The translations under genes were made by a program, and so were the position numbers. Below the pieces are notes generated by a model. That model ran no database searches and had not been told where the DNA came from. It saw only the letters and a list, made by a program, of their open reading frames with translations. From Candidatus Mcinerneyibacteriota bacterium (lineage in GTDB: Bacteria; Macinerneyibacteriota; Macinerneyibacteria; Macinerneyibacteriales; DSCS01), in contig JAFGWL010000056.1 of NCBI GenBank assembly GCA_016937175.1, forward strand, positions 25,685-89,684: a stretch of 64,000 nucleotides of DNA, in the 5' to 3' direction. Positions 5,451-26,352 of the stretch are shown in pieces (position 1 is the first letter of the stretch; each line of letters starts with the position of its first letter).

Positions 5451-5477
5451 GAAAAAGGGAGAATATATTATTCTCTC
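5451..5477 (-). terminator. Rho-independent terminator overlapping the stop codon of the giant gene
   Basis: 9-bp stem gggagaata/tattctctc (one G-U pair), loop tat, followed on the minus strand by UUUUUCU. Confidence 0.5.
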
Positions 5478-8400
5478 TCCAATGGAATACGGCCGCTGAT
5501 AAGGAACGAATGATAGATTTTTTCAGCGATCATGGTTCCCAGAAGCTGGAAATAGGAGCTGTCAGAAGCTACCGAATAACGGTCGGAATCGATCCTTAGG
5601 TAGACGGAAGCTGTCGTCCTCTTGTTCAAATCCACTCTCCGTATCAGATCTCCTTTCTCTTCATCACCCGGGAGAGCCGGATCCGTGATCAGACGGCTGC
5701 TTTCTCCCTGCAATCCCAGACAATAAATATCTTCTGATACGTCCAAAACAATAAAAAATGAGCTGGCATGGAAGTAAGTGACCAGCAGGTCAAAGATCTG
5801 CCTGACCATGGCCTCCGGCCCGGTGATGGGTCGGATTTTTTGCGCCAGGTCAAAAACAGCATCGATCTTCTCACTTTCTCTCACAGGATCCCGGAGAGGT
5901 TTCGCTTCCTTCTCTTTTTCCCTGCGCTCAGGGACTCCCCGGATATAAACGGTTCTGTTTCTCCCGCTCTCTTTGGCATAGTAGAGGGCCTCATCTGCTT
6001 TGGCTACGAGCTCTTCCAGAGCCTTTCCGTCATCGGGGTAGAGGGCATAACCTATACTGCATGTCAATTTATAATTCTGGTTCAACACGGAATTTTCAGT
6101 GTTCTTCCGGACCCGGTCAATGATCTTTTCTCTGTCGGCATCTCGGGGTATGATCATGGAGACACAAAACTCTTCTCCTCCATACCGTCCCACAAAGTCA
6201 CTCATGCGGACAGTCCCCTTGACAATACGCCCCATCTCTTTCAGGACCGAGTCCCCTCGTGAATGGCCGTAGGTATCGTTGATATTCTTGAAATGGTCCA
6301 GGTCCAGAATGGCGATGAGAACCTGCTGTTCAGACTTATCGGCATAATCCAGCATATCCTGTGTAAGATTTATCCAATGCTCCCTCTTATAAAGGCCTGT
6401 GAGCCGGTCAAGAAGAGCTGTCCTCTTCAAATAATCATAGTATCCCGCTGCATTGATAAAGTCCCGGAAAGGGCCTAACCCTTCGGTGATTTCTTTGTCA
6501 GGATAGAGGAGAAGACGAGTCGTATCCAGGTAGAGACACCCTCTAAGAGCAAAGTAGTGAAAACTTGATTGCCTGTTTTCCCGTGTTTTGCTTTTTCCCC
6601 GCCCCAGTTTTTCAATATCCAGTACGGGAATGATCAGGATCCCCGTCAGGTTCCGTCCCTGCCTCTTCTCTTCCCGGTGATAGAAGATATCCCTATGGGC
6701 CTTTTCAAAAAGGATCTCATTCAGAAGGTCCCGCCTCATGGGAACCGGAACATGATACCGTCCTTCTTTTTCGATCACAAGTTTCTCTGTCCAGCCCGAA
6801 TAGAGGTCATATTCGAAAAAGCCCCCCCGTGTCATCCCTGTGATATCCATAAGGTCCACGAGGATCGACTTATAGAGCCCTGTCCCCTCATTGACCGGAG
6901 ATAGCTGGTAATCCTCCAGAGCCTTTCTCTTGCTCTCTGCAATCATCTCACGGGCGAGATCACGGTGGGCCTCTCTGAAGAGATCGGGCCGGTCAACCAC
7001 CGGGTCGATGCCATGCTTTTTCAGAAGGCTTGCATGAAAAGCCCATTCTTTGTTTTGTTCCATGAAGGAGGTTCTGTACTGTATGGGGACTGTATTAAGC
7101 CACTCTTTCATTTGGGTAAAGAGGTCCAGGAGGACATCATAGAAGAGAGCTGTCCCCTCTTCATGCTTCTCAACAAGAAGATGAAGTGTATAAAGCATCT
7201 GAGAAGATCTGTAAAAGGGTGCAGCATAAACCCTTTCCAGTGCCTCTTCACTTCCGAGAAAAGCTCTGAGGAGGTCGGAGCGGTTCTTCTCCTCTCTCTC
7301 CTCGATTTCAAAACCTTTTCTCTCAAGAGTATCCAGAAAGCGGACAGCCAGGTCTTTATCTCCCGAAAGCCAGGCCTTCTCCGCTCCATGAAGAAGGAGT
7401 GTGCTATAATGCTTTTTATCTTCTTCTGCAGAGTACCGGCGCAAAATAGCATCCATCTCCTTTTCCATGGCTTTCAGCCCCGCTTCCTCTGCCCGGGCTG
7501 TGAGAGAGACGACCAGGTATTCCACGCATTCTCGAAGAGAGGGACGGTCTTCAAAAAAGGCCCCTGCTTCTTTCAAAGCGGCCCGGGCCCGCTCATGGTC
7601 TCCCAGTTCAAACAGAAGGTCTGCCAGCAGGAAATTCATCTTAGCCCCCTCGCGGACCCCTTTTTCGTCTCCCAAATAATCAAATCCTTTGCTGATGACA
7701 TCATAGGCTTTGTCATAGTAATGGAGTGTCTTGTAGGCTTGGGCTAAATTCATTGTATTGATGGTAGCTGCATGAAAGAAATGGATCCGTTCTGCTGCCC
7801 TGACAGCACGGATCCAGGAAGAAATGGCCTCTTCAATTTCGCCCCGGTCGATGTTGACGATCCCTGTGTTGGTGGAAACGATGGCGATAAGCCTCTGATC
7901 GTCCAGGCGCTGGGCTATCTCCAGGGCTTTTTTGAAATATTCATGGGCACGGTCGACCTCTCTGGCCCTTCGGTAGGCGATGGCTCTTGCGTTATAAGCA
8001 TTGAACTCTGCATCTAAAGAGATGTGTTCCCGATTTTTTTCGACGATTGAAAGCATCTGCTGGGCTGTCTCTTCCATTTTTTTATTGTTCTGATTATCCA
8101 TATAACTTATCATAAGCTCATTAAGGAAGAGCGATTTCCGGTTTTCGTCAAGTCCGTCGATCATCTCCCTGAAGCCGCAGACCATCTCTTCGACTCTATC
8201 ATATTCACTTTTTGTGACATAAAAGACCAGAAGGTTGTAAAAAACAGTCCCCCATTCTTCCGGGTGATCTGCCGGCCCTTTCTCGATAAATCCCATGAGT
8301 TCCTTTATATCCTCTTTATCCCCGTTGGACAGGATGACAAGCCGATAACTCTTGTAAAGGGTCTTTAACAAAGGAGTATCCGCAAAAGCCTCCATCTGGG

Positions 8401-10243
8401 AGAGGACGACATCTTTGCCGATGAAACGCTGAAAATCATGCCGATATAATACCTCATAGAGTTTGAAGAGATTGACTCCCGTCAGGTTTTGAGCAGAATT
8501 ATGGATCTGGGAAAACAGGTTATAGAAAAAGCGGTGATGGACCGACTGTTCCCTGACACCCATCATCAGATAATGGCTCATGGCCTTGTGATAAGCCTCG
8601 GCGCCGAATCCCGTGTTCAGTGCCAGATAGACGAAGGTTTCAAGATAGGAAAGCTCCCGGAACCCGTTCTCTTCAAAATAATCCAGGACAAGACGGGCCA
8701 GAGCGGGGTCGACTTTTTTCTCCCCGGTCTCTATCAGGGAGGAGAGACGGAATACATAGAAGAGTTCATCCCGATAGGCCACATCCTGCTCCTCCAGAAC
8801 CGCCAGGGCTTTTTGCAGAGAGACGGGAGCCTTTTCAACAAAATCCTGAGGGATCTTTCCACCCATAGCCCGTCCCAGAGCCAGAGCCTCTTTCGTATCC
8901 TCCTCTGTTTTCCCCTTAAAAGCTGCGATACTGATTCCGGTGCAAAAACACCCCTGCGTCCGTGGAAAAGATCCCCGGGCTTCGATAAGCTTAAAACATT
9001 CCTTATCAGCTGCCTTACACAGGCTTTTCCTGACCAGGGAAGGCTCTCCCCCGCTCTGGTCCAGAAGCTCCTTAACGGCTTCTTGCATGTCATCAACGAA
9101 ATAATAGTAGTAATGAAGCACACGTGCGGTTTCTTTTTCATCCAGTTTCGCCATGGTCAAAGGGAACATTCCGGGAAGGGGCCTTCGGTTCCAGGCTACG
9201 ACACGGAGGTCTTTCGGTTGAAAACGCCTGGAAAGATAAGTCAAAAACCGCATATCTTCTTCAGACAGCTCCTCTCCTCTGCCCAGGCCTAAAAGGGCCG
9301 GGCCCGAGGCGACTTTATTTTCCAAAAAACGGATTGCTTTGGCACGCATCTCTTCAGGGGTCCTCGCCACAGACTCCCGGCCCTCTTCTTCAGACCGGCC
9401 CAGGTATTTTATGATCCCTTCTGCGAGGGAAGCCTTCTCCTCTTCCAGCCCGAAATACTCATACCCTTTAGCCTGGATCAGGGGGATAAGGCCCTGATAC
9501 CAGAGACGGGCATTTTCTTCAGAAGCATAATCATAAACGGTTGTGAGAGACTCCGTGGTTTCCAATAGGGAGATCTCTCTCTCTGACAGGATCAAGGCTC
9601 CCGGGAAAGGGGTCGAGCAGGCATGGCCCTGAATAAAGTCCCTCTGAAGGCTATCAGAGATCACTTCGCGATGAGGAAAATAGAGCCGGAGGTCTGGTAC
9701 ATCTTCGTCAGAGAGTTTGTATCCTGCTTCATTCATCAAACGGGTAAAGGCCATCAGGTCCGCTCGGCGGCCCATATCGATATCGACATAAAGCGGGCTC
9801 ATATCAAAAAAGACAGGGTTCCTTTTTGTATCCCTCAAGGCATTGCTTTCACGGAGATCCCCGTGGTAAGTCCCGTTAGCATGAAGAAAAGAGATGAGAG
9901 AAAAAAGGCTGTTGATCAACATCTCTTTGTTCTCCGGGTTCATTCGAAAAAGCCCCGGCATCTTATCAGCGATATAAAAAGAGCGGGAACTGTCTGTGTA
10001 ACGGCCGTCTATACTCGCCAGGGTGTGAAAAGAGCGGATAGGCCGCAGAAGTGGATGCCTGTAAAGAGAGGTAACCATATATTCTTTTGTCAGAAGGTCC
10101 TTTTGGAATTTTTCTTCAGAAACTGTTATTTTGAGGATAAGCTCTCTTTTTGGGAAAAAAAGGTCGCCTGCTTCATAGACGATAAAATTATTGTTTTTAT
10201 TAAGAAGTTTTTTAATCGTAAAGCGTCCGTTGACCAGTTTCAT
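5468..10243 (-). CDS. Giant multidomain signalling protein (1591 aa): degenerate protein-kinase-like N-terminus, possibly degenerate STAND/TPR core, GAF-like region, GGDEF diguanylate cyclase (GGEEF) and a C-terminal GAF-like extension
   Basis: Kinase-like motifs HGDLRESNAL (catalytic loop) and FFDMSP (in place of DFG). TPR-like helical repeats. LDLDHFKNINDTYGHSRGD...RYGGEEF is a GGDEF domain. GGAG SD. Confidence 0.9.
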   Translation of the reverse strand: MKLVNGRFTIKKLLNKNNNFIVYEAGDLFFPKRELILKITVSEEKFQKDLLTKEYMVTSLYRHPLLRPIRSFHTLASIDGRYTDSSRSFYIADKMPGLFRMNPENKEMLINSLFSLISFLHANGTYHGDLRESNALRDTKRNPVFFDMSPLYVDIDMGRRADLMAFTRLMNEAGYKLSDEDVPDLRLYFPHREVISDSLQRDFIQGHACSTPFPGALILSEREISLLETTESLTTVYDYASEENARLWYQGLIPLIQAKGYEYFGLEEEKASLAEGIIKYLGRSEEEGRESVARTPEEMRAKAIRFLENKVASGPALLGLGRGEELSEEDMRFLTYLSRRFQPKDLRVVAWNRRPLPGMFPLTMAKLDEKETARVLHYYYYFVDDMQEAVKELLDQSGGEPSLVRKSLCKAADKECFKLIEARGSFPRTQGCFCTGISIAAFKGKTEEDTKEALALGRAMGGKIPQDFVEKAPVSLQKALAVLEEQDVAYRDELFYVFRLSSLIETGEKKVDPALARLVLDYFEENGFRELSYLETFVYLALNTGFGAEAYHKAMSHYLMMGVREQSVHHRFFYNLFSQIHNSAQNLTGVNLFKLYEVLYRHDFQRFIGKDVVLSQMEAFADTPLLKTLYKSYRLVILSNGDKEDIKELMGFIEKGPADHPEEWGTVFYNLLVFYVTKSEYDRVEEMVCGFREMIDGLDENRKSLFLNELMISYMDNQNNKKMEETAQQMLSIVEKNREHISLDAEFNAYNARAIAYRRAREVDRAHEYFKKALEIAQRLDDQRLIAIVSTNTGIVNIDRGEIEEAISSWIRAVRAAERIHFFHAATINTMNLAQAYKTLHYYDKAYDVISKGFDYLGDEKGVREGAKMNFLLADLLFELGDHERARAALKEAGAFFEDRPSLRECVEYLVVSLTARAEEAGLKAMEKEMDAILRRYSAEEDKKHYSTLLLHGAEKAWLSGDKDLAVRFLDTLERKGFEIEEREEKNRSDLLRAFLGSEEALERVYAAPFYRSSQMLYTLHLLVEKHEEGTALFYDVLLDLFTQMKEWLNTVPIQYRTSFMEQNKEWAFHASLLKKHGIDPVVDRPDLFREAHRDLAREMIAESKRKALEDYQLSPVNEGTGLYKSILVDLMDITGMTRGGFFEYDLYSGWTEKLVIEKEGRYHVPVPMRRDLLNEILFEKAHRDIFYHREEKRQGRNLTGILIIPVLDIEKLGRGKSKTRENRQSSFHYFALRGCLYLDTTRLLLYPDKEITEGLGPFRDFINAAGYYDYLKRTALLDRLTGLYKREHWINLTQDMLDYADKSEQQVLIAILDLDHFKNINDTYGHSRGDSVLKEMGRIVKGTVRMSDFVGRYGGEEFCVSMIIPRDADREKIIDRVRKNTENSVLNQNYKLTCSIGYALYPDDGKALEELVAKADEALYYAKESGRNRTVYIRGVPERREKEKEAKPLRDPVRESEKIDAVFDLAQKIRPITGPEAMVRQIFDLLVTYFHASSFFIVLDVSEDIYCLGLQGESSRLITDPALPGDEEKGDLIRRVDLNKRTTASVYLRIDSDRYSVASDSSYFQLLGTMIAEKIYHSFLISGRIPLERE

Positions 10244-12141: not shown

Positions 12142-15100
12142 TCAAGTATCCTCTTCTTTTTGAATGGTATGAAAGGATGCTAAAAAGACCTTTTCACTGA
12201 TAATATTCCCCAGCATCGTAAAAAAACGTTCATCCTGCTGAAAAGAATAGCGGTCCGATCCCATCTCCAGATAGACCGAAACACTGTAATGTTCATGGAT
12301 GGAATAGGTATTCAGCCTGGCTCCGCCTAACCCCCTGTCAGACTCCATCTCTCTTTTGCCCACCCCCTGGGCAGAGGCTTTTTTTTCGTAATAAATAAAG
12401 TGACTGTTCCCGCCCATGAGAATTCCCAGACGTGTAGCTTGGAAAAGGGCTACGAGGATATCATAAATATCCGAAACGACCTCTTCAACAGGCATAAAGG
12501 GGTCGATCTTCTCTTCAATGCCCAGCAAGGCATCCAGCTTCTCTTTCTCCCGGACAGGGTCATCGATAGCCTTTTTATTGTTTTTCTTTTCTCCCGCTGC
12601 ACTCGCCGGCATGGTCTCATAGGCGATGGTCACATTTCGTCCGCTCGATTTTGCATAATAGAGAGCTTCATCGGCCTGTCCCAGCAGAGAGTCTAAAATC
12701 TCTGCATCCCGGGGATAGAGGGCATACCCTATGCTGACGGTCAGGTTGAACTTTTTGTTCAGGGCCGAACTCTGTACATTCGCCCGGATCCGGTCCGTGA
12801 TACCGGAATAGGAAGCTTTCGGGGGAACCATCATGGCCAGGACGATCTCCTCGCCTCCATAGCGTCCGACGATATCTGAGGCTCTGACTGTCTCTTTGAT
12901 AATAGCACTCACTTCTTTTAAAACAGCATCTCCCCTGGCATGGCCGTATCTGTCGTTAATATTCTTAAAATGGTCGATATCAAGGATGGCTATGATCACC
13001 TGCTGGTCATTGTTCAAAGCATATTCCATGAGTTTTTTGGTCAGATTGATCCAGTGTTCCCTTTTATAAAGGCCCGTAAGCTTGTCCATGAGAGCCGTCT
13101 GTTTCAGGTAATCGTAATAGCCTGCGGCATTGATGTAATCTCTCAGGGGGCCCAGCCCCTCTGTGACCTCCGCGTCAGGCACCAGCAGCATCCTGTCGCT
13201 GTCCAGATAGATACATCCCCTCAAGGCAAAGTAGTGGTAGCTTGACTGGCGCTTATTGTCTCCCCTGTATTTATTGTGTCCCAGTTTTTCTATGTCAAGC
13301 ACCGGGATCACCATGACAGCACTGGCAGAAGAACCTTTTCTGGCCGGTTCACGGCTGAAATAGACATCCCGATGGGATGATTCAAAAAGGACCTCGTTGA
13401 TCGCCTCTTTATAGACAGGAAGAGGTGGATGATATCCGGTCCCCAGGTCCAGAACCACTTTATGCTGCCACCCTTCATACATGTCATACTCATAATAGGC
13501 TGCCCGGGTCATGCCGGTGATCCGGATCAGGTCTTTCAGAATGGACCTGTAGAGATTCTCACCTTCACTCATGGGAGACAACCTGTAGTTTTTCAATGCC
13601 CGTTTTTTCTCTTCCCGGATAAAACGCCGTGCTGTCTGCTCATATTCCTGACGAAATGAGTCCAGATGAAATTTTTCGGACTCATACCCCTGTTCCCGGA
13701 GGAGCTTACTGTGGAAGCGCCATTCAGGATTCTTCTTTTTAAAGGAATCCCTGTATTGATAAGGGATATGCGCCAGCCAGCGGCTCATGATAGAAAGAAG
13801 CTGGGCACAATATTCCAGATGCAGTGCATTCTTCGTCTTCTCTTTTCGGATAAGAGCGTTAAGGACAAACATGGACCTGGAATACCCTGTAAACTCCCCC
13901 ATCCCCTCTTCATCAAACTCCCTCTTCTCTCCGCTGAGAAAGAGGATGACATCCATCATCTTCCTGTCCCCCGGCTCCAGGGTCTCCAGGGAGCCGGAGT
14001 CGATTTTTTTTACATAGTCAGCTGCATCCTGATAGTGGCCTGCACATAGGAGCTGAAGGGCAGCGGTCAGAAGGACGATACTGTAATAGGCCTGGTCTTC
14101 AGCGGAAGAAAAACGTGAAAAGAGGCCTTCGATAAACTCGTCCATGGACTTCTTCCCTTCTGCCTGGAAGAGAAGAGCGATTCTGACGTCGAAATACTCA
14201 TAACTTACTTTTAAAGCGCTCCGTTCTTCATAAAAGGGGGCCGCTTCCTTCAAATGGGCTTTAGCCTGTTGATAATCCCCCAGTTCCATAAGCATATCCG
14301 CATAGAGAAGATGAAGCTTTGAATTTTCCCGGAGTGTAGGAGCTTCAGCCAGGTAAAGCTCTATTTTTTTAAAGGTCGACAGGGCTTGCTCATACTGATG
14401 GAGAAGTTTGTAGACTAAAGATAGGTTGATCGAGTTTGTAACCATTGAAAAATAGATCTTTGCCTGCTCAGCAGCTTTCACTGCGCTTGTCCATGAGGCC
14501 GTACAAGCTTCATAATCTCCTGAATAGTAGTGTATGACACCGATATTAGTTGCCACAATAGCTTCGTAACGATAGTTCTCCAGGATCCGTGCGATCTCAA
14601 GTGCTTTGTTATAGTGGACCAAAGCCTCCGGAAGACGTCCCTGTCTGCGGAGAACGATGGCCAGATTGTTATGGCTGCTGAAGTGGGCATCCAGCCCTGT
14701 TTTCTCTCCTTTTTTTCCAACGATCTCAATCATGGACCGGGCTGTCTCCTGCATCTTTTCAAGATCCATCTTATCCATATAACAGGAAAACATCTCATTC
14801 ATGACCATGACCCGGTTTTCATCGTTCAACGATTCGATGGGCTTTTTATATTTCTCCATGAGCTGTTCCATCTCTTCATAGCGGCCGAGGAATTTCAACT
14901 TCAGCAGGACATGCCGGAGAACGAGGGCCCAGGTATCCTTCTCCTTCCGGTCATAAGCATCCAGAAAAGGGTACATCGCCCTTACATCATCCAGAGTCGC
15001 TTTATCATCCAGAGTCAGCTTAAAAGCCTTTGTGACCTGCTTCTCTCGTTCCGTCCGCCCCTCTTTCTCCAATTTTTCCAACAGGAGGGAATTGTCATAG

Positions 15101-16881
15101 ACATGATTGTGATCCAGCTTCAATAAGTTCAGATAGAGGTCAAAGGAGTTTCCCCCTTTCATCTCCCCGATATTTTTTTCAAAGGCCCGGAAGAGGCGAA
15201 AAAAGAGGACACGGTTCAGAGAACGCTCCCTTTCGCTCAACCGGTTGTAAAAAGAGAGGATCTTTTCGTAAGCTTCTTCCCCCTGCCCGGTGTTTAGCGA
15301 ATAAAAGACATAGCTTTCAAGATAAGCCTTCTCCTGAAATGCAAGTCTTTCCAGCTCATCATACAAAGGACGTTGATCCGTCGTCGTAAATTTTTGTCGG
15401 ACAAGATCGCCGGGGATCCTGTTCAACCGCAGGATGAAGAAAAGTTTGTCCCGGTAAAAAGCTTTCTCTTCCATGAGGTAGATAAGGGCCTTTTTTTCTT
15501 CAGAAGAGAAGAAATCGAAAAAAGAGGAAGGTATCTTTCCTCCCATGGATCGGGCCAGAACCACCACATCCTCTACGGCTTTTCGCTCAGAGCCGGGAAT
15601 CTCCTTTAAGGAAATGGAAAAATCGAAACTCTCTTTCCCCTTATCCAGCGAGACAGTCCCGTTTTTGAATATAAGAGACTCTCCTGCAGCCATTTGACGG
15701 ATAAGCCTAAGAAGGAGGGATGGCTCTCCTTCCGACTGACGCCACAGGGTCTTCGCGGCCTCTTCATCTTCGTTCAGATAAGGAATATAATACCGGAGGA
15801 CGCGACAGGATTCTTCTTCTGTCAGAAGCGGGCAGGAGAGGTTTTCAAACTCTTCAGCAGGCTCGCGCTGCCAGATGAAAAAAGAGATACGATTGTTTTC
15901 AAAATGGTTCGCAATCTTTCTGAGCAGGCTAAGGTCATCACGGCTCATGGATTCTGCCGCTCCCAGCCCAATGGCCACAGGCCCATACCCGGCTGCATCT
16001 TCAAGAAAGCTCAGGAGCCCCTCTTCTCCGTCTGCGCCATTGACTGCCGCTGTAAGCCTCTGAGAAAGGGGTTCCGGGCCTTCTGCCCTGTAAAGCTCGA
16101 TCCCCTCAGCCTGGATAAGAGACAAGACCGCCTCATACCAGATACGGGCATTATCAGCACCACGATAATCATAGATCACCGTCACCGGCTGTATAAAAGT
16201 GAGCCCGTCCGGGGTTCTTGACTGTATAAGTCGTTCAGCTGGGAAGGGAGTGGCCCTGATATGCTCCAGTGCCACAGCTTTAACGTAATCATCCGAGATA
16301 AGAGAACGGAAACCGGGCAGCGAGAAGAGCTCCGTTGCATCCTCTTCCCTGAAGGGAAACCCGAGAGACCTCAGTAACTCAGCAACGGCTTTCATATCAT
16401 TTTTCTGTCCCAGGGCATTATTCACATAGAGAGGGCTCATATCAAAAAAAAGAGGAAGCCCCTGGCCGTCAGCCAGGATATTGCTTTCCCTGAGATCTCC
16501 GTGATAAGCTTCATTTCTGTGTAGAAACCCTAAAAAGACATAAAGGGCACTGATTAGGGTTCCGGCCTTCTGCTTGTCGGCCTGGAAAAGCGAGGGATAT
16601 TTGTCGGCTATATAAAAGCAACGGGTTGTATCAGTGAATCGACCGTCGATGGTCCGCAAAGGGTGAAAGGAATCCAGGGGCCGAAGCAGCGGATGTCGGT
16701 TCAACAGGCCGGCAAGATATTCCTTTCTCAGAAGATCAGTCTGAAAACGTTCTTCCGAAGCCGTGACCTTCAATATCTTCTCTTCGCCCGGAAAGAGGCG
16801 GTCGACCGCTTCATAGACGATGAAATTGCTGTTCTCATTCAAAAGGGTTTTGATTTCAAAGCGGCCGTTGAATAGTTTCAT
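12142..16881 (-). CDS. Giant multidomain signalling protein, paralog of 5468..10243 (1579 aa): kinase-like N-terminus, TPR/STAND-like core, GAF-like region, GGDEF domain with variant motif GGEEI
   Basis: N-terminus MKLFNGRFEIKTLLNENSNFIVYEA is near-identical to its paralog. HGDLRESNIL and FFDMSP motifs. RYGGEEIVLAMM in the GGDEF domain. Confidence 0.9.
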   Translation of the reverse strand: MKLFNGRFEIKTLLNENSNFIVYEAVDRLFPGEEKILKVTASEERFQTDLLRKEYLAGLLNRHPLLRPLDSFHPLRTIDGRFTDTTRCFYIADKYPSLFQADKQKAGTLISALYVFLGFLHRNEAYHGDLRESNILADGQGLPLFFDMSPLYVNNALGQKNDMKAVAELLRSLGFPFREEDATELFSLPGFRSLISDDYVKAVALEHIRATPFPAERLIQSRTPDGLTFIQPVTVIYDYRGADNARIWYEAVLSLIQAEGIELYRAEGPEPLSQRLTAAVNGADGEEGLLSFLEDAAGYGPVAIGLGAAESMSRDDLSLLRKIANHFENNRISFFIWQREPAEEFENLSCPLLTEEESCRVLRYYIPYLNEDEEAAKTLWRQSEGEPSLLLRLIRQMAAGESLIFKNGTVSLDKGKESFDFSISLKEIPGSERKAVEDVVVLARSMGGKIPSSFFDFFSSEEKKALIYLMEEKAFYRDKLFFILRLNRIPGDLVRQKFTTTDQRPLYDELERLAFQEKAYLESYVFYSLNTGQGEEAYEKILSFYNRLSERERSLNRVLFFRLFRAFEKNIGEMKGGNSFDLYLNLLKLDHNHVYDNSLLLEKLEKEGRTEREKQVTKAFKLTLDDKATLDDVRAMYPFLDAYDRKEKDTWALVLRHVLLKLKFLGRYEEMEQLMEKYKKPIESLNDENRVMVMNEMFSCYMDKMDLEKMQETARSMIEIVGKKGEKTGLDAHFSSHNNLAIVLRRQGRLPEALVHYNKALEIARILENYRYEAIVATNIGVIHYYSGDYEACTASWTSAVKAAEQAKIYFSMVTNSINLSLVYKLLHQYEQALSTFKKIELYLAEAPTLRENSKLHLLYADMLMELGDYQQAKAHLKEAAPFYEERSALKVSYEYFDVRIALLFQAEGKKSMDEFIEGLFSRFSSAEDQAYYSIVLLTAALQLLCAGHYQDAADYVKKIDSGSLETLEPGDRKMMDVILFLSGEKREFDEEGMGEFTGYSRSMFVLNALIRKEKTKNALHLEYCAQLLSIMSRWLAHIPYQYRDSFKKKNPEWRFHSKLLREQGYESEKFHLDSFRQEYEQTARRFIREEKKRALKNYRLSPMSEGENLYRSILKDLIRITGMTRAAYYEYDMYEGWQHKVVLDLGTGYHPPLPVYKEAINEVLFESSHRDVYFSREPARKGSSASAVMVIPVLDIEKLGHNKYRGDNKRQSSYHYFALRGCIYLDSDRMLLVPDAEVTEGLGPLRDYINAAGYYDYLKQTALMDKLTGLYKREHWINLTKKLMEYALNNDQQVIIAILDIDHFKNINDRYGHARGDAVLKEVSAIIKETVRASDIVGRYGGEEIVLAMMVPPKASYSGITDRIRANVQSSALNKKFNLTVSIGYALYPRDAEILDSLLGQADEALYYAKSSGRNVTIAYETMPASAAGEKKNNKKAIDDPVREKEKLDALLGIEEKIDPFMPVEEVVSDIYDILVALFQATRLGILMGGNSHFIYYEKKASAQGVGKREMESDRGLGGARLNTYSIHEHYSVSVYLEMGSDRYSFQQDERFFTMLGNIISEKVFLASFHTIQKEEDT

Positions 16882-16956
16882 TTTTCTATCTTATCATCTT
16901 CCCGTAACTATTCAATCTCTTTTCCTTACCCATTTACCCTTTTTATCACTCAACCC

Positions 16957-16985
16957 TTGCCCATCACCATTCTCCCTGATATAAT
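16957..16985 (+). promoter_or_regulatory. Sigma70 promoter TTGCCC-17nt-TGaTATAAT (extended -10) for the zinc-ribbon gene. The predicted TSS coincides with the ATG, so the mRNA would be leaderless
   Basis: TTGCCC at 16957-16962; TATAAT at 16980-16985 with TG at 16977-16978; ATG at 16993; no SD. Confidence 0.5.
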
Positions 16986-16992
16986 TTCATTA

Positions 16993-17760
16993 ATGAAACG
17001 GGAATCATCTTTGTATCACTGTCCGGAATGCAGTGAATTCGTAACAATGTCCCAATCCTACTGTCCTGCTTGCGGGACACGCCTTTCCCCTTCCCGGCTC
17101 AGGCCAGCCGCAGAAGAGGATAAGGTGACCCGGAAACACAGACGCTCTTTTGTCCCCCTCATCCTCGTTTTCATCCTCCTTATCACCGCTGTCATTTTCC
17201 TCAGCCCTCTCAACCGGGCTCTTCGCCCTCTTCTTCCCGGAATGCCGGTTTTTCAGGAGCCCCCCGGGACCTTCGAATGGGACGGAGAATACCTTACGTC
17301 ACATGCGGGGAATTTTTATATCCGTCTTCCTTCTCCCCCGTCTTTTGAGATCTCACAGATCAAAGCTGAAGGGGCTTCTTTCGACGAATATATTTTTACA
17401 GCACAGGATGAAGAAAGCCAGTGTCGTATTCTTTTTACTCTTCTTGATGACAGGACTTGCGGGACTCTTGATTTCAGCCAGCCCCTGAAAGCTTTGGAAA
17501 CCCTCAGCAGGATGAACATCATCGAGGGGAACCCCGTATCGGCATCTCCCCTGCTCTTTTATGATTTCTGGCCGGGAATCGAATTTCAGGTAGAGGTCAT
17601 TCCCCGGCAGGGGTCTGCATTACTGGGAGTGGGACGAGCTTTTTTAAAAGAAAAGACCCTCTATATCATGGAAGTTGTCAGGCCCTCAGCCCCGGGGCTT
17701 CCCCAAAAGAGCTCTTCCATCCCCTGGGTCGACTCCTTCGGGTTGATCGATATCAACTGA
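16993..17760 (+). CDS. Zinc-ribbon (CPEC...CPAC) membrane-anchored protein with extracytoplasmic domain, 255 aa
   Basis: Two CxxC pairs at the N-terminus, then a TM helix (LILVFILLITAVIFL). The track start at 16957 is a TTG inside the -35 element and is rejected. Confidence 0.65.
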   Translation: MKRESSLYHCPECSEFVTMSQSYCPACGTRLSPSRLRPAAEEDKVTRKHRRSFVPLILVFILLITAVIFLSPLNRALRPLLPGMPVFQEPPGTFEWDGEYLTSHAGNFYIRLPSPPSFEISQIKAEGASFDEYIFTAQDEESQCRILFTLLDDRTCGTLDFSQPLKALETLSRMNIIEGNPVSASPLLFYDFWPGIEFQVEVIPRQGSALLGVGRAFLKEKTLYIMEVVRPSAPGLPQKSSSIPWVDSFGLIDIN

Positions 17761-17762
17761 TT

Positions 17763-19247
17763 CTATCTCTGATTATAATATCGGTACAGCTTGATGTCTG
17801 TGATCACCTTGCCCAGGCCCACAAAAATAACAAATATCTCAAGACGTCCCAGGAACATCCCGGCAATCTCAGTCCAAAGAATATAAGGCGGGGCTGTTGC
17901 TGAAGTCACTCCCACAGAAAGACCGACTGTCCCGAGAGAAGAGGCAAACTCAAAAAATGAATCTGTGAATGAGTATCCGGCTGTCATAAGGATAAGAGTT
18001 CCCGCGAAAAGAATCAGAAGATAGGTAAAGACAAAGGCAAAGATCTTGTGCACCATCTCTGTTGTGATCCATTGCATACCGCCGCCGTAATAGACTCCTT
18101 TACTTTGGATGGTATTCTTCGGTAAAAGCTGGCGTCTGATATGAAACCATAGTTCCTTAAGGATGACGATGACACGGATCTGCTTGACCCCCCCTGATGT
18201 CGAATAGGCTCCTCCTCCTGTGATCATTAAAATGGAGATAACTACAAGGGCGATCTCGCTGAATTTGGAATAGGGATGGATATTGAATCCGGTCGTTGTC
18301 AATCCCGATATAGACTCAAAAACAGCTGCTTTTATGCGATAAGCTAGCGGAGCTGCTTCACCTGAAGAAACAGAAAAAAAAAGGAACAGTGAACTTGCCA
18401 GGGCCATGACAGCGAAAAGCCTGACTTCAGTGTTCTTAAAAAGTTTTTTAATATTTCCGTGGAAGACCTCATAGGCTGTAATAAAATTCAGATTCCCCAC
18501 AAACATAAGAATGAGAATGATAAAATAAACAGGCCATGAACTCCAATAACCGATACTTTGAGGGTGCGTTGCAAAACCTCCGGTCGAGATCGCTGCAAAT
18601 GTATGATTGACAGCATCAAAAAAAGACATTCCGGCCCACTTTAAAAGAAGAACCCCCGTAATCGCATAAGCACCATAGATGCGCATGACGACTTTTGCCG
18701 AGCTGACCACGTTGGGGATCATTTTATCAGAGCGTCCCTCTGCTTCCATGATGGAACTACCGAAGCCGGCCTGTATTCCGAACACAGAAAGCATGATGAT
18801 GGCCAGCCCTGCTCCTCCGGCGAATTGCATAATACTTCTCCATAACAGAAAGGGAGATGTAATGGAGGTCACATCAAGCACAGAAAGGCCCGTCGTCGTC
18901 CATCCGCTCATGGATTCGAAAAAAGCAAGATGAAAGGGGATGTTCAGCCCGATCCAGAAAGGAAACGATGAGACTACAATGATCCAGAGCCAACCGAAAA
19001 CAGTCAGGACAGCACCGTAATAGAGATTCATCTCTTCATTTTTATAACGAATAAAGAGAATTCGTAGAACAAGCCCGGTGGCAAGGAGAACGAGAGAGGG
19101 AAACCAAAAAGAAAAGATCTCCCTGTTTCCTCCCCCCGAAGTCAAAAGAGCCATAAGGAGAGACGGAAGAAAGAGAAAACTTCCGATAATAGACATATAG
19201 CCTGTATAGTAGAGGATTCCAGCATATTTTCTCATTATCTCATTCAT
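17763..19247 (-). CDS. trkH: Trk/Ktr-type potassium uptake membrane subunit (TrkH/KtrB family)
   Basis: MSGWTTTGLSVLD and SGLTTTGFNI pore-loop motifs. Start MNEIM lies 4 nt after the upstream stop. Confidence 0.85.
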   Translation of the reverse strand: MNEIMRKYAGILYYTGYMSIIGSFLFLPSLLMALLTSGGGNREIFSFWFPSLVLLATGLVLRILFIRYKNEEMNLYYGAVLTVFGWLWIIVVSSFPFWIGLNIPFHLAFFESMSGWTTTGLSVLDVTSITSPFLLWRSIMQFAGGAGLAIIMLSVFGIQAGFGSSIMEAEGRSDKMIPNVVSSAKVVMRIYGAYAITGVLLLKWAGMSFFDAVNHTFAAISTGGFATHPQSIGYWSSWPVYFIILILMFVGNLNFITAYEVFHGNIKKLFKNTEVRLFAVMALASSLFLFFSVSSGEAAPLAYRIKAAVFESISGLTTTGFNIHPYSKFSEIALVVISILMITGGGAYSTSGGVKQIRVIVILKELWFHIRRQLLPKNTIQSKGVYYGGGMQWITTEMVHKIFAFVFTYLLILFAGTLILMTAGYSFTDSFFEFASSLGTVGLSVGVTSATAPPYILWTEIAGMFLGRLEIFVIFVGLGKVITDIKLYRYYNQR

Positions 19248-19251
19248 GTTG

Positions 19252-19908
19252 TCAGTCCCCTTCGATGATTTTTGCAATTTTTCCGATATTTTCAGGGTCA
19301 GAGATGACAAGGATCTTCTGCCCCGACCTCAGGGGAGTCTCTCCCCCGGGAATAGTGATCCCGTTCTCATCAAAGATGACACTGACCAGGGACATTTTGG
19401 GGAAATGGGCATCTTTGATAGCGACCCCGTTGACGGGCGAATCCTCGCTGATCTCGTATTGTGTCATAACTACTTTTCCTTCTGCGAAACTCATGAGATA
19501 AGAAAACCCTTCAAAGATGGTATTCTGACTGATCAGGTCGGCGATCATCTTTGTATTGGACAATCCTTTGATCCCGAAATCCCTAAAGACCTCTTCAAGC
19601 TCAAAATTGTTCACAAGAGCCAGGACATGAGGGACTTTGAAGATGGTCCTGGCTACTTGTCCAATAATGAAATTATCCTGATCCTTTTCCCGTAAAGTAA
19701 TCAGAACATCACAAAAATCAGTTTCCGCTTCTTTCAGGCTTTTCAGGCCCGTTCCGCTTCCCAGGATAACCCTGGCTTTTAATTCCTTCGACAAAAATTC
19801 GCATTCGCTTGGTTCACTGTTCAGAATTGTCAACTGATGCCCTTTTGAAAGTAGCATCTTACCTAGAAAAAATATAATACGTCCTGTGCCGATGATGGTT
19901 ATTTTCAC
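19252..19908 (-). CDS. trkA: TrkA/KtrA-like RCK protein (TrkA-N Rossmann plus TrkA-C)
   Basis: GTG start with GGGAGGA SD. VKITIIGTGRIIFFLG is Rossmann-type. The GTG overlaps the upstream TGA (GTGA). Confidence 0.75.
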   Translation of the reverse strand: MKITIIGTGRIIFFLGKMLLSKGHQLTILNSEPSECEFLSKELKARVILGSGTGLKSLKEAETDFCDVLITLREKDQDNFIIGQVARTIFKVPHVLALVNNFELEEVFRDFGIKGLSNTKMIADLISQNTIFEGFSYLMSFAEGKVVMTQYEISEDSPVNGVAIKDAHFPKMSLVSVIFDENGITIPGGETPLRSGQKILVISDPENIGKIAKIIEGD

Positions 19909-20330
19909 ATATCCTCCCTGAACATCCCCGTGATAAAGAGGTCTGACACCGTGGACACTGTGCTGAGGACTTCTATCCCAAAGTGATGGTAGAGCTCCTC
20001 CCATTTGGGATCGAAGACATGGGCAATGACCCTGGGGACTTCATAATATTTCCTCGCCATCTGGGCCACCATAAGATTGGCATTGTCATCATCACTCGTA
20101 CAAAGGAGATAATCGGCATCCTTTAATTTGGCTTGCTTCAGGATATTTGGATCAACTCCATCACCCAGGATCGTGAAGCCTCCGAAATTCTCATCCAATC
20201 TGGAGAAGGACTTCTTGTCTGTATCAATGACAGTGACACTGTGTCCGAGTCGGCTCAATTTATTAGCCAGATAGGATCCGATCTTCCCCGAACCTATGAT
20301 GACAATATACTTGATGTTTTTCATTATCAT
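19905..20330 (-). CDS. trkA: TrkA-N domain protein (NAD-binding RCK N-domain only)
   Basis: IVIIGSGKIGSYLANKL Rossmann motif. 141 aa. The ATG overlaps the stop of the response regulator (ATGA). Confidence 0.8.
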   Translation of the reverse strand: MIMKNIKYIVIIGSGKIGSYLANKLSRLGHSVTVIDTDKKSFSRLDENFGGFTILGDGVDPNILKQAKLKDADYLLCTSDDDNANLMVAQMARKYYEVPRVIAHVFDPKWEELYHHFGIEVLSTVSTVSDLFITGMFREDM

Positions 20331-20998
20331 CCACCAAGACTCACGGGTTTATCAGGATGCATACTCGTCGCCCGGTCAATATTCTCGATAGCGGGTTTAA
20401 AGGCCGGGTCTATGGCTGTTGCTGCCCTGTAATACTTCAAAGCGTTATTTCTCTCTCCAGTCTTCTCATAGTAGACCCCCATCAGATTGTAGCCTTCCGG
20501 CTGATTGGGATCAAGGGCTATAGCCCTCTTGATCAGCCCCAAAGCTGTGGATGTCTTCTTCCCTTTGATCAAACCGATGATCTTTTCAATAAGGTCGCCA
20601 TAACTCTCTTTTCCAGGAACACTCTCATCCCTCTCAAACTCGATATTCATTTCGACAATCTGTCGGATCTCTTTAGGAGTAAATGGTTTTTGGATAAAAT
20701 CCATCGCCCCTGCTTTCATAGCTTCCACGGCCGAATCAACTGTTCCGTGAGCTGTAATGATGATGACACAGGGTTTGATTTCAGAATTTTTCATAATTTC
20801 CTTAAGTGTATCGATACCGCTCATCCCCGGCATCTTCAGATCCAGAAGAATGATATCAAACCTGCTGGCTTTGTGCAATCTGACAGCTTCTTCACCGTTG
20901 ACAGCTGTTTCAATGAGACAATCCGGTTTCTCCAGCGCCATTTTTATTGTCGTTCTGATATTTTTTTCATCGTCTACGATAAGTATTTTTTTCATCAA
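20327..20998 (-). CDS. Response regulator: REC receiver domain fused to C-terminal TPR repeats, with no DNA-binding domain
   Basis: ILIVDDEKNIR...LLDLKMPGMSG receiver motifs. C-terminal TPR-like helices (YNLMGVYYEKTGERNNALKYYRAATAIDP). Confidence 0.85.
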   Translation of the reverse strand: MMKKILIVDDEKNIRTTIKMALEKPDCLIETAVNGEEAVRLHKASRFDIILLDLKMPGMSGIDTLKEIMKNSEIKPCVIIITAHGTVDSAVEAMKAGAMDFIQKPFTPKEIRQIVEMNIEFERDESVPGKESYGDLIEKIIGLIKGKKTSTALGLIKRAIALDPNQPEGYNLMGVYYEKTGERNNALKYYRAATAIDPAFKPAIENIDRATSMHPDKPVSLGG

Positions 20999-22854
20999 CC
21001 CTCCTCTTCTATCGTTCTCATAGGTAATGTGAAAGTAAAAGCCGCTCCATTGCCCTTCTCTGATTCGACCCAGATGGTTCCCTTATGAGCATGGATGATC
21101 TCCCTTGATATCGAAAGTCCCAATCCCGATGCCCCCTGCTTCTCCTTATCACCCGTTTGGAAAAAGCGGTCGAAGACACGGGAAAGATCCTCCGGGGAGA
21201 TTCCAGGACCGAAATCACGGACAGTGACATAGAGATTGTCCCGGATTATCCGGGTTTTAACTGCGACCTCTCCTTTTTCTTCGGTATACCGTAGGGCATT
21301 TCCTATAAGATTGACTAAGACCCAGACGATTTTTTCAGTATCATGGTAAAAAGGCGGACTCTCTTTACTGTCCACTTCTACTTTGATCCCCTTCTCTCTG
21401 ACCTGGTTTTCCAGGACACTTAATGCTTTATCGAGCGTCTCTGAAAAAGGACAAAGCTCAAAATTCAATGGAAGCTGGCCTGATTCCATTTTCGAAAGGT
21501 TCAAAAGATCACTGACCAGGTTGCTTAACCGGCTGATCTCTTCACCGATCATATCCACAAGTTCCGTCACCTCTTTGCCCTTAATTTTTTCTTTCAGCAG
21601 ATCGACACTCATCTGCATACCGGTCAATGGAGTCTTCAATTCATGGGATGCAGCCATAACAAAATCGCTTTTCATCTTATCCAGAATCCTAAACTTTGTG
21701 ATATCTGTAATCAGAACGACAGCCCCGAAGACCGATTCTTTTTTCATAAAGAGGGGGGTGATTGTATATTGATAATACTTTATACCTTTTTCTCCCTGGA
21801 TCTCGATCAGGTTTTCCCCTTCTTTTTTTTCAAGCCGGCCTGTTCCCATGATGCTTTTGATATTTTTAAACAGAGTCTCCTCTTTTATGACTTCAAGAAA
21901 ATGGCGGTCCAGAGATTCAGACTGGCTCATATGAAAGATATCGGCGGCTTTTGTGTTGATGTTGGTTATCTTCATTTCTTCATTGACGACAATGACGCCG
22001 TCATCGATCTTATTGATGATAGCTTCATTTTTCTTGGTCTCCGTAAGGATCTGCTTGATATTGAGATTCTGATAAAACTGAAGCTTCTGGCTCATCCTGT
22101 TGAATTCCGCAGCCAATTGCCCGAATTCGTCTTTTGATTTTGTTCCAAGTTTGATATTATAATTTCCCCGGCTGATTTCATCAATGGCTGGAAGAATCTC
22201 TTGCATCGGACGCGTGAGGAGGTGAGAAAAGAGAAGGCTCAGAAGAAAACCGGCCAAAAGAGTTCCGCTGCCGACAATAATCAAGGAGAGACGGCTTTTT
22301 GCTGCGATCTCTCTTGTCCGTTCACTGGTTAAAAACATGGTATGCTGGTTCAGGTTTCTTAAAGCGATACAGGCCTTCCTGACCTGATGAAATTTTACCA
22401 TCAGGTCGTTCAGGTAAAACTTTCTTCTTCCTTCATTCCCAGTACGCTGGTATTCCTTGACCATGAACTGATAGAACGAATTAAGGTAAGAATTGTAATG
22501 TTTTTCCAAATCCTCAATCAAAGCCCCCTCTCCCTGGATGGTCTCGTTCTCGGCAGCAGCCTTTAGCCATGAAAGAAAATCCTGCTCGTTCTTTTTAAAA
22601 TCTTCCAGAAGAGATGCACTGTAGTCTGAGAAGAGGATCAGCGTTATGCTGTCTTGCCGTTCAATCGAATCCACCATATTTTCAGCAGCGATAATACTGT
22701 TATAATTCTCCTTGAGGATCTCCTGACTTGCATCTCCCAGCTCGCTGAGTTTTGAGAGCGCCCATAGAAAGATCACTGCAATCAATACAAGAAAGACAGC
22801 ATAAGCGATGAGGATTCGCCACTTTAAAACCGGCTGATACTTTTTGTTATCCAT
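20995..22854 (-). CDS. Sensor histidine kinase (2 TM, HAMP, PAS, HisKA, HATPase)
   Basis: H-box HELKTPLTGM and G-box GLGLSISREI. 4-nt overlap with the downstream response regulator. Confidence 0.9.
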   Translation of the reverse strand: MDNKKYQPVLKWRILIAYAVFLVLIAVIFLWALSKLSELGDASQEILKENYNSIIAAENMVDSIERQDSITLILFSDYSASLLEDFKKNEQDFLSWLKAAAENETIQGEGALIEDLEKHYNSYLNSFYQFMVKEYQRTGNEGRRKFYLNDLMVKFHQVRKACIALRNLNQHTMFLTSERTREIAAKSRLSLIIVGSGTLLAGFLLSLLFSHLLTRPMQEILPAIDEISRGNYNIKLGTKSKDEFGQLAAEFNRMSQKLQFYQNLNIKQILTETKKNEAIINKIDDGVIVVNEEMKITNINTKAADIFHMSQSESLDRHFLEVIKEETLFKNIKSIMGTGRLEKKEGENLIEIQGEKGIKYYQYTITPLFMKKESVFGAVVLITDITKFRILDKMKSDFVMAASHELKTPLTGMQMSVDLLKEKIKGKEVTELVDMIGEEISRLSNLVSDLLNLSKMESGQLPLNFELCPFSETLDKALSVLENQVREKGIKVEVDSKESPPFYHDTEKIVWVLVNLIGNALRYTEEKGEVAVKTRIIRDNLYVTVRDFGPGISPEDLSRVFDRFFQTGDKEKQGASGLGLSISREIIHAHKGTIWVESEKGNGAAFTFTLPMRTIEEEG

Positions 22855-22898
22855 ATTGGGCTATTTTAGTCTGCCGGAGGTGTCTTGTCAATTTTCTT

Positions 22899-25379
22899 TT
22901 AACCCAACCGTTGCAACACCCTGGACAGTTCGGCAATAGAAAACGGCTTCTGTAAAAAGCCCACGGCTCCTTCCCTGGTCATAGCCCGGATCCTCTTGTC
23001 GCCAGTAAAACCGGAAATCAGGATAACGGAGACCCTGCTGTCTATTTTTTTCAGCTCCCGGAAGGTCTCGTACCCGTCCATCCCCGGCATGGAGAGGTCC
23101 AGCAGGACTCCTTTGAATTCACGGCCCTGTTCCCGATACAGAGCGATTCCCTCGGGCCCGCCGGAAACACAGATAGCTTCATATCCGCAAAGCTGAAGCA
23201 TCTCACTGGTAAAATCTCTGACCAGGCTTTCATCATCGATGATAAGGACCCTCCCTTCTCCCCTGATGATCTCATCCGTCACGGCCGGACATTGCGGAGC
23301 AGCTTTTTCCCCCTGGTAAGCGGGAAGAGTAATGGTAAAGAGAGTCCCTTTTCCCTCTGAGGAATCAACGGTGACTGTTCCCCCGTGCCTGTTCACGGCA
23401 TTGGAGACCATGATGAGTCCGAGTCCACTTCCGGCAGCTTTCTCTTTTGTGGTGAAAAAGGGGTCGAAGATCTGCCTGCGCACCCGTTCACTCATCCCCA
23501 CTCCTGTATCCCGGACAGTGATCACCCATGAAGCCCCCCCCTCTGCGGAGGGATGGAGAGCGACTGTCAGGGTCCCCCCCTTTTTCTCTTTTTCCGGGCG
23601 CATGATGGTCATGGCATGTTCGGCATTGACACAGAGGTTCAGGAGCATATGTTCGATCTGATAATAATCTCCGCTGATCAGGGCTTTTTGATCAAAAAAG
23701 TGAAAATCGAGGACCACCGATTTGTCCAGAGTATTCTTACAGATCTCAAAGATCTCTTCGAGGGCATCATTCAAGTCAAAGAGGGTCTCCTCCCCGCTGT
23801 TCATTTTGGATAAGCTGAGGAGCCTGTCGATCACCGATGAAGCTCGGCGTGAAGCTTTAGACAAGTTAGAAAGATAACCCAGGAGTTTCTCTTTATCGAG
23901 TTGTCCGCTCCTGTTGATATAGTATTCAGCCAGAGAGACCGTCCCTTCTATTCCCCCGAGGACATTGTTGAAATCGTGAGCCAGCCCTCCTGCCAGTGTT
24001 CCCACGACTTCCATCTTCTGAGCTTGAAGAAGCTGTCGGTTCATGAGATGGGATTCTGTCACGTCATCCACCCGGACTACCCCTTCCCTGCTGTTTTCTG
24101 TAAAGGGGAAAAAGGTGACATTTAGATAATATTCGGATTCTCCCGATTCATAGGGAAGCCCGAGGATGGTTTTTTCCCTGCCTTTTTTTGCAGCTTCCCG
24201 GATCTCAGACTCCACCGAGGCGAAGAAGGGGGAGACTTGCCCCAGTGAGAAATAACGTCCTTTCAGATGCTGAATGCCAAAGACACGCTCAGCAGCTTTG
24301 TTCCAGCCGGTCACGGTAAGGCCCCTGTCAATGGTGATCAGGACTGAAGGGGAAGAATCGATGATTCCCTGAAAATAGTTCTTGGACTCGGTGAGAGCCT
24401 TTTCCATCCGCCGGATCTCTTCCATCTCCTTTTTTGCCCGGGTGTTTTTCAGGCTCAGATAGATAAAGCCGGCGACCAGAGCCATAAGGACGAAAATGGT
24501 GAGAAAAAGACGCCACCGGTAACCCAGCAAAACCTCGACCTCACTGCTGTGAGGAGTCGAGACAGCGACTGACCAGAAGGTATCCCCCATCCTGATAGGA
24601 TAGAAGGAGGCGTATATGGTGATATTTTTCTCAGAATCCTCCGGTTTAAGGAAATAGGTGCCTTTTCCCTTCAATCCCTTGAGCATGTTGGTGATGATAC
24701 TCTCGAACCCGGGAGCTTCCTGGTGAAGGGCTCTTATCTTTTGTCCGATAAGCTCTTTAACAGGGTGGTAGATGATATACCCACCCTCTGAGATGACCCA
24801 GGGATACCCTTCCCCTGAGGTCCCGACGGGTTCGAAAAAACGACGGGCGATGGAATCAAAGGGGATCAGAACGGTAATACACCCTTTGAACGCTTCTCCT
24901 GCGAAAACGGGATAGGCATAGGCTACAGCCTGATATCCCTGAACAGTTTCAAAGACATCGCTGACCACAGGCTTGTGATCCTTTAAGATGCGTTCATTAT
25001 GTGGTTGCGAACTAACATCCATCCCGAGGACATCTTCCCGGACAGGATAGGTCCCTCTGATCCGTCCCGATTCATCGATCCGGGTCACAGCGATGATGCT
25101 CCCTTCATTGGCACGATAATAACGCTCCAGGAGCATCCCCATATCAAAGGTGTTGTAGATCACCCGGTTATGGGCCGACAGAAAATTCAGGTCTTTCTCG
25201 TAATGGCTGAAATATTCCCTGAGGGCTACCGAAGTCTGTTCGACGATGAGTTCGCGCTGCCGTTCGTGATGCCGGATGATCTCCTGAGAGATCTTATTAT
25301 AATTGACCAGGAGAAACAGCAGCCCTACACAGGTGAGACACCCTCCGATAAGAATCGATTTTGTAATTTTACCGTCCAT
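22899..25379 (-). CDS. Hybrid sensor histidine kinase (periplasmic Cache-like domain, PAS, HisKA, HATPase, C-terminal REC)
   Basis: H-box LAHDFNNVLGGI; GSGLGLIMV; C-terminal receiver VLIIDDESLV...LLDLSMPGMDG. Confidence 0.9.
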   Translation of the reverse strand: MDGKITKSILIGGCLTCVGLLFLLVNYNKISQEIIRHHERQRELIVEQTSVALREYFSHYEKDLNFLSAHNRVIYNTFDMGMLLERYYRANEGSIIAVTRIDESGRIRGTYPVREDVLGMDVSSQPHNERILKDHKPVVSDVFETVQGYQAVAYAYPVFAGEAFKGCITVLIPFDSIARRFFEPVGTSGEGYPWVISEGGYIIYHPVKELIGQKIRALHQEAPGFESIITNMLKGLKGKGTYFLKPEDSEKNITIYASFYPIRMGDTFWSVAVSTPHSSEVEVLLGYRWRLFLTIFVLMALVAGFIYLSLKNTRAKKEMEEIRRMEKALTESKNYFQGIIDSSPSVLITIDRGLTVTGWNKAAERVFGIQHLKGRYFSLGQVSPFFASVESEIREAAKKGREKTILGLPYESGESEYYLNVTFFPFTENSREGVVRVDDVTESHLMNRQLLQAQKMEVVGTLAGGLAHDFNNVLGGIEGTVSLAEYYINRSGQLDKEKLLGYLSNLSKASRRASSVIDRLLSLSKMNSGEETLFDLNDALEEIFEICKNTLDKSVVLDFHFFDQKALISGDYYQIEHMLLNLCVNAEHAMTIMRPEKEKKGGTLTVALHPSAEGGASWVITVRDTGVGMSERVRRQIFDPFFTTKEKAAGSGLGLIMVSNAVNRHGGTVTVDSSEGKGTLFTITLPAYQGEKAAPQCPAVTDEIIRGEGRVLIIDDESLVRDFTSEMLQLCGYEAICVSGGPEGIALYREQGREFKGVLLDLSMPGMDGYETFRELKKIDSRVSVILISGFTGDKRIRAMTREGAVGFLQKPFSIAELSRVLQRLG

Positions 25380-25555
25380 TTACATATCCTACCGTTGAGT
25401 ATGACCTGAAGAAGGCTTCCTGTCAATAACTGTCATGTTTTTGCTTCGTTTCTCTCCAGGCTAAGACTTCAGGCCCCGGCCCGGAGCCGCCTCCAGGGCC
25501 TGCAGGATTTAGAGGATTCGGTGGAAAGGAACGAAGGAAAGGCGGCTCCGATATC

Positions 25556-26193: not shown

Positions 26194-26352
26194 TTCTCCT
26201 TTCTGTATTAATCATAAGGCCGCTCATTGATTCTTTGAAGATAGCAGTTTATTTATTTTAGAGTTCCCCTATTCTATTATATATTATTGTTATTCTAATA
26301 GTTACTTACTTTTATATTGTATTTAGGTTGCCATTTGCTGAACTTCTGAAAC

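Follow-up and report, generated by a model that had tools for sequence, protein, structure and literature searches.

Divergent extended −10 promoters adjoining both start codons predict two leaderless mRNAs in Candidatus Mcinerneyibacteriota

Where would the mRNAs of two divergent genes begin, and how would they be translated, when neither start codon has a convincing Shine–Dalgarno (SD) sequence? This question is raised by a 111-bp intergenic region in a 64,000-nt stretch of Candidatus Mcinerneyibacteriota DNA (the window). A zinc-ribbon gene (plus strand, ATG 16993) and giant gene 2 (minus strand, ATG 16881) diverge from this shared region. SD strength was calculated as the energy of the duplex formed with the anti-SD CACCUCCUUA. 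For most other genes of the window, it was −8 to −13 kcal/mol, and roughly 40 had a GGAGG-type SD. The values for ATG 16993 and ATG 16881 were +0.6 and −3.8 kcal/mol, respectively. No purine-rich complement of the anti-SD was found 5–10 nt upstream of either start codon; the only GGGAAG near ATG 16881 was located 17–22 nt upstream, within the promoter spacer. Giant gene 1, an operon-internal paralogue of giant gene 2, had the SD aggcaggag (−8.2). The strong SDs at most genes of the window indicated that the organism uses SDs and that the starts at 16993 and 16881 are exceptions.

The product of giant gene 2 (12142–16881, −) is 1579 aa long. Pfam assigned it TPR repeats and, at the C-terminus, a GGDEF domain; its N-terminus is kinase-like. 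The gene heads an operon that also encodes a 292-aa protein, an M19 dipeptidase, and the 1591-aa product of giant gene 1 (5468–10243, −). The N-terminal domain of giant gene 2 contains the kinase-like motif YHGDLRESNIL. Neither giant paralogue had a Pfam match in its N-terminal ~400 aa (15700–16881 and 9044–10243, −), and the protein-kinase-like catalytic-loop motif YHGDLRESN was invariant across the giant-protein orthologues and the paralogue.

The product of the zinc-ribbon gene (16993–17760, +) is 255 aa long. Its N-terminal part is a four-Cys zinc ribbon, matched weakly by Pfam at residues 8–31, and a single transmembrane helix spans residues 54–76. The C-terminal domain matched no known family. 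The predicted structure had a mean pLDDT of 49, which was too poor for a fold search. The family consisted of only five protein clusters among 5.8 billion sequences, one bearing the label Candidatus Mcinerneyibacteriales and another Firmicutes/Bacillota, and an exact-sequence look-up of the window's protein returned no record. Nearly all genes of the window are on the minus strand, with a negative GC skew throughout, and the zinc-ribbon gene is among the very few plus-strand genes. A module at 17763–22854, encoding TrkH, two TrkA-like proteins, a response regulator with TPR, and a histidine kinase, sits between the zinc-ribbon gene and a hybrid kinase gene. This module was found only in the window; in four related contigs (L001, L004, L007, and L020), the hybrid kinase gene directly follows the zinc-ribbon gene.

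The sequence between the two start codons was read directly. On the plus strand, the −35 hexamer TTGCCC (16957–16962) is followed by a 17-nt spacer (16963–16979) closing in TGa and by the hexamer TATAAT (16980–16985), giving the extended −10 element TGaTATAAT (16977–16985). The 7-nt discriminator ttcatta (16986–16992) then leads to the ATG at 16993–16995. On the minus strand, the −35 hexamer TTGAAT (16915..16910) is followed by a 16-nt spacer closing in TGa (16896..16894) and by TAAGAT (16893..16888), giving TGaTAAGAT (16896..16888). The 6-nt discriminator agaaaa (16887..16882) leads to the ATG of giant gene 2 (16881..16879). The −10 box is therefore 7 nt from the start codon of the zinc-ribbon gene and 6 nt from that of giant gene 2. 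Both promoters carry TG at −15/−14, one base before TAnnnT, as extended −10 promoters do. Both genes start with ATG and head their transcription units.

The initial annotation had described TTGCCC-17-TGaTATAAT ending 7 nt before ATG 16993 and TTGAAT-16-TAAGAT ending 6 nt before ATG 16881. Both descriptions were exact, and the minus promoter has an additional TG extension (TGnTAnnnT) that had been overlooked. The annotation had also reported no SD before ATG 16993 and no convincing SD before the ATG of giant gene 2, which the duplex energies bore out.

A consensus promoter scan of 8 kb was performed with a threshold of 9/12. The plus site was one of three 10/12 matches. Besides it, only one listed site had TG ahead of the −10, with a score of 9/12. 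The −35 of the plus site, TTGCCC, is poor (4/6). The minus site was absent from the scan list because its hexamers score 8/12. An Rfam search over the window gave tRNA only, with no riboswitch or leader RNA found here.

We consider it probable that the region contains two back-to-back, non-overlapping sigma-70-type extended −10 promoters that would produce two leaderless, SD-less mRNAs (0–1-nt leader). The transcription start site (TSS) is usually the seventh base after the −10 hexamer, ideally a purine following a pyrimidine. The operational definition of a leaderless mRNA covers a TSS 0–5 nt upstream of the start codon. For giant gene 2, RNA polymerase would start at the A of its ATG (16881). 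For the zinc-ribbon gene, the start would be A16992, with a leader of 1 nt (5′-AAUG), or A16993. The predicted TSSs of the two promoters would be 111–112 bp apart. With the promoters positioned at the start codons, both mRNAs would have a leader of 0–1 nt and would lack an SD. Ribosomes would bind the 5′-terminal AUG directly, as in leaderless translation. In the predicted folds of both mRNAs, the 5′ AUGs were unpaired, and the folding was indistinguishable from that of shuffled sequences, a result that is compatible with leaderless mRNAs but does not discriminate. We infer promoter use by RNA polymerase, the exact TSSs, and the translation route from the sequence.

The layout resembles published cases. 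In bacterial leaderless genes analyzed with GeneMarkS-2, the Pribnow box is 6–8 nt from the start (PMC6028130), and in Deinococcus the −10 element adjoins ORFs (PMC12340547); the 6–8-nt spacing is diagnostic of leaderless genes in bacteria. Leaderless translation in E. coli has a strong preference for AUG, and on this route 70S particles engage an AUG located at the 5′ end or close to it (PMC9031893).

To follow the region across relatives, five distinct intergenic versions from related metagenome-assembled genomes (MAGs) were aligned. They represent about four lineages of one small clade: the window with L001 and L002; L004; L007; and L014/L020. A scan of genome contigs with the alignment of giant-protein N-termini (A2) gave L013–L015. 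The MAG labels within this one syntenic clade were inconsistent (P0002 vs P0005/L014), being Candidatus Mcinerneyibacteriales in one record and Firmicutes/Bacillota in others. Fourfold-degenerate sites of the flanking genes were 44% identical between the window and L004/L007. The L014/L020 lineage shared 52% identity with the window in the giant protein and 38% in the zinc-ribbon protein. The intergenic length was 110–112 nt across the three closer lineages.

The promoter elements were far better conserved than their surroundings. In the promoter hexamers, TGn motifs, and start codons, 31/36 alignment columns were invariant, versus 24/81 in the rest of the intergenic region (alignment A6; Fisher p = 1.5e-8). 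ATG was present at both starts in all five lineage sequences. TGATATAAT-N7-ATG and TGATAnnAT-N6-ATG were retained in all lineages, with the distance to ATG unchanged. In L014/L020, the giant gene has TTGAAA-16-TGaTATTAT-6-ATG, and the zinc-ribbon gene has TTGCTC-16-TGaTATAAT-7-ATG.

For the plus promoter, all nine positions of the extended −10 were invariant in all lineages. Its −35 occurred as TTGCCC, TTGTCC, or TTGCTC, with 4/6 columns (TTG and the fifth position) invariant among the five lineage sequences. The spacer was 17 nt, but 16 nt in L014. The discriminator was 7 nt in all lineages, and 2/7 of its positions were invariant (TA immediately before ATG). For the minus promoter, the first five bases of the −35 (TTGAA) were invariant, the hexamer being TTGAAA in L014, and the 16-nt spacer was constant in all lineages. 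The extended −10 was TGATAAAAT in L004/L007 and TGATATTAT in L014. TGA, T−12, A−11, A−8, and T−7 were invariant, and the hexamer varied only at the tolerant −10 and −9 positions (TAAGAT, TAAAAT, and TATTAT). The discriminator was 6 nt in all lineages and read taaaaa in L014. Thus, the discriminators varied in sequence but never in length. These alignments support purifying selection acting on both promoter-like sites and on their distances to ATG.

The region between the two promoters (16916–16956) was mostly unconserved, with 12/41 columns invariant. The exception was a block at 16916–16925, directly upstream of the minus −35 (GGAAAAGAGA on the minus strand), which was conserved at 10/10 positions in the close lineages and at about 6/9 in L014. 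This block may act as an UP-like element or bind a regulator.

The hybrid kinase gene served as a control. It encodes an 826-aa dCache/hybrid histidine kinase (ATG 25379, −) and has a conserved promoter, TTGACA (25426..25421)-17-CATACT (25403..25398). Its spacer was 16 or 17 nt, and the −10 and the ATG were 18 nt apart in the window, against 16 nt in L020. Its leader carries an SD-like motif, GGTAGG in the window and the closer lineages and AGGT in L020. The conserved promoter indicated that the sigma-70 consensus holds in this clade. The leader indicated that leadered genes in the clade carry an SD, with the −10-to-ATG distance free to vary.

The best surviving alternative is that the promoters lie further upstream. 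The mRNAs would then have leaders without SD, initiation would rely on A/U-rich, unstructured sequence, and the TATAAT-like blocks would be secondary or incidental. The consensus scan did list a plus-strand site of this kind, TTGAAT-18-TATCAT (16868–16897), which would give the zinc-ribbon gene an 88-nt SD-less leader. Its TATCAT and TTGA were conserved in all lineages, and the sequence just before both ATGs is A/T-rich. However, this site overlaps the minus −10 and codons 4–5 of giant gene 2, and the shared minus-strand TGATA together with the invariant Asn5 codon accounts for its conservation. The would-be leader (16916–16976) is the least conserved part of the region, and leadered genes in the clade have SD-like motifs. 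Upstream promoters would also leave unexplained why TGATATAAT is invariant and why the 6- and 7-nt distances are fixed amid diverging bases. We therefore regard this alternative as unlikely. TTGAAT-18-TATCAT itself could be a second, upstream promoter of the zinc-ribbon gene or a by-product of the overlap.

Another alternative is that the conserved blocks are an operator pair for a transcription factor controlling both genes and are merely promoter-like. The two −10-like blocks, ATCTTATCA ... TGATATAAT, are imperfect inverted counterparts (7/9 positions match by eye), and the conserved block at 16916–16925 lies beside the minus −35. However, the conserved positions are the key ones for sigma-70 (TTG, TG at −15/−14, T−12, A−11, and T−7), the changes in the minus −10 fall where a sigma-70 promoter tolerates them, and each block has a −35 at 16–17 nt. 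The perfect 10-nt inverted repeat of the window is also not kept in L004/L007. An operator pair in place of promoters is thus very improbable; a regulator site could coexist with the two predicted promoters. The perfect repeat (16868–16877/16906–16915, TTGAATAGTT/AACTATTCAA) brackets the −10 and start of giant gene 2. It was considered as a candidate element and set aside as probably due to chance, as it is not conserved in L004/L007.

The prediction of leaderless mRNAs depends on where translation starts, and the two start codons were examined by protein comparison. For giant gene 2, an in-frame TAA is located 9 nt upstream of ATG 16881. M1 was invariant, and conservation was seen from residue 5 (NGRFEI) in the orthologues and the paralogue. 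The SD-led giant gene 1 begins at a Met homologous to M1 of giant gene 2. In the zinc-ribbon protein, M1, K2, CPEC, and CPxC were conserved even at 38% overall identity. Between the window and L004, 6/8 changes in the first 16 codons past ATG 16993 were synonymous. In the 12 codons from TTG 16957 to the ATG, 3/4 changes were non-synonymous, falling at codon positions 1 and 2, and the remaining bases were conserved across all three codon positions. This substitution pattern indicated constraint at the DNA level and not at the protein level upstream of ATG 16993. Protein conservation begins at M1 of each protein, which supports both ATGs as the likely true translation starts.

With the zinc-ribbon start at ATG 16993, TTG 16957 is best read as part of the −35. 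The initial annotation had rejected the ORF-track start at TTG 16957, which lies in the −35 hexamer, as almost certainly wrong; the comparison agreed, since this TTG forms the first three bases of the −35 and protein conservation begins only at ATG 16993. Use of a different start codon had been named as a finding that would overturn the leaderless proposal, and the sequence comparison favored ATG 16993 over both TTG 16957 and the internal ATG 17047. A start of the zinc-ribbon gene at TTG 16957 or ATG 17047 would put the −10 within the coding sequence or far ahead of it; no stop codon interrupts the frame from 16957 on, and gene callers picked the internal ATG in the L004–L012 contigs (238 and 237 aa), but the excess of non-synonymous changes stops at ATG 16993, TTG 16957 likewise has no SD (+2.7), ATG 17047 would drop the first CxxC of the conserved four-Cys zinc ribbon, Met19 is replaced by Ile in L001 and by Gly in L014, and M1–K2 is invariant, which makes mis-assigned starts highly unlikely. 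The public calls P0003 and P0004 (238 and 237 aa, respectively) begin 18 codons late (in L004, 6001 was called and the start is at 5947), probably because of the missing SD.

How often such a pattern arises was estimated across the whole window. Counting both strands of the 64-kb window (128 kb), TTG-N16–18-TGNTANNNT occurred seven times, or 5.5e-5 per position. Three of the seven occurrences were intergenic, each facing a gene start. Two of these are the sites before ATG 16993 and ATG 16881; the third precedes gene 59175, whose 33-nt leader carries an SD. With ~47 gene starts and 4 allowed gaps, ~0.01 coincidences of the motif with a start were expected, versus 2 seen, which are adjacent to each other. 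A stringent scan of the whole window for ORF starts next to a −10 gave only 16993, 16881, and 22854. The −10-adjacent, SD-less pattern fits about 3 of 20 transcription-unit heads in the 64 kb.

The start at 22854 is a third leaderless candidate, on the minus strand. TTGACA (22891..22886) is followed by 17 nt, TAAAAT (22868..22863), 8 nt, and ATG 22854, and the whole promoter is contained within a 44-nt intergenic gap. The gene encodes a 619-aa HAMP-PAS histidine kinase and lacks an SD (−2.8). A metagenome scan with this kinase found only relatives with 28–34% identity. Two other −10-adjacent starts were dropped. At 25379, TAGGAT proved to be the conserved SD-like motif downstream of the real TTGACA-17-CATACT promoter. 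At 26227, the lineages could not be aligned upstream of the start, and a cluster of ATGs led by an SD is found further downstream in a different frame.

The arrangement is the already known "−10 adjacent to ORF" leaderless mode, and its mechanism is not new. It resembles the leaderless genes of Actinobacteria and Deinococcus-Thermus (GeneMarkS-2 "group C"; PMC6028130, PMC12340547), in which TANNNT lies 6–8 nt before ATG, the SD is missing, and the gene heads its transcription unit. A difference is that 25–60% of transcripts or operons are leaderless in those phyla, whereas the leaderless genes predicted here are in an SD-dominated genome fragment. Another difference is that the promoters here are of the extended −10 type with a recognizable −35. 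They belong to the standard class of extended −10 (TGn) sigma-70 promoters, with TG one base upstream and a weak or partial −35.

Classic single leaderless genes in SD-using bacteria are lambda cI, transcribed from PRM, and tetR of Tn1721. The likeness to them lies in isolated leaderless regulatory genes in an SD-using genome, often in a divergent promoter region, with a 5′-terminal AUG. Unlike in those cases, the prediction here covers both genes of a divergent pair, and neither product is a repressor: one is a giant TPR-GGDEF protein and the other a membrane zinc-ribbon protein. The locus also resembles the symmetric bidirectional promoters reportedly described by Warman et al. in 2021 in that divergent transcription would arise from one short intergenic region. 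In those promoters, the −10 elements are said to overlap and the TSSs to be separated by about 18 bp. In contrast, the −10 elements here (16888–16893 and 16980–16985) do not overlap and, with their TG extension on the plus strand, are 83 bp apart (16893 to 16977), pointing to two separate promoters and not to a symmetric bidirectional one. What is slightly unusual is that the predicted mode occurs in an SD-dominated genome fragment, involves both divergent partners, and has persisted on both sides of a deep split within a candidate phylum.

A broader interpretation is that this SD-dependent phylum expresses a small, conserved set of signaling genes in leaderless form, tying their translation to the state of the ribosome (70S or stress-type initiation). 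Its members would be the giant TPR-GGDEF protein, the membrane zinc-ribbon protein encoded opposite it, and perhaps the histidine kinase at 22854; the divergent pair would act as a co-regulated unit that couples c-di-GMP signaling to translational status. We regard this interpretation as speculative and distinctly improbable at present.

For annotation, the locus provides a direct correction: the zinc-ribbon gene was called 18 codons late in one sub-lineage, and the mechanical ORF start at TTG 16957 is 12 codons early. If confirmed, the two leaderless mRNAs would be the first sign that this mode of expression occurs in Candidatus Mcinerneyibacteriota. They would also offer a tidy case in which both divergent genes of an SD-rich genome are leaderless and have remained so over a deep divergence.
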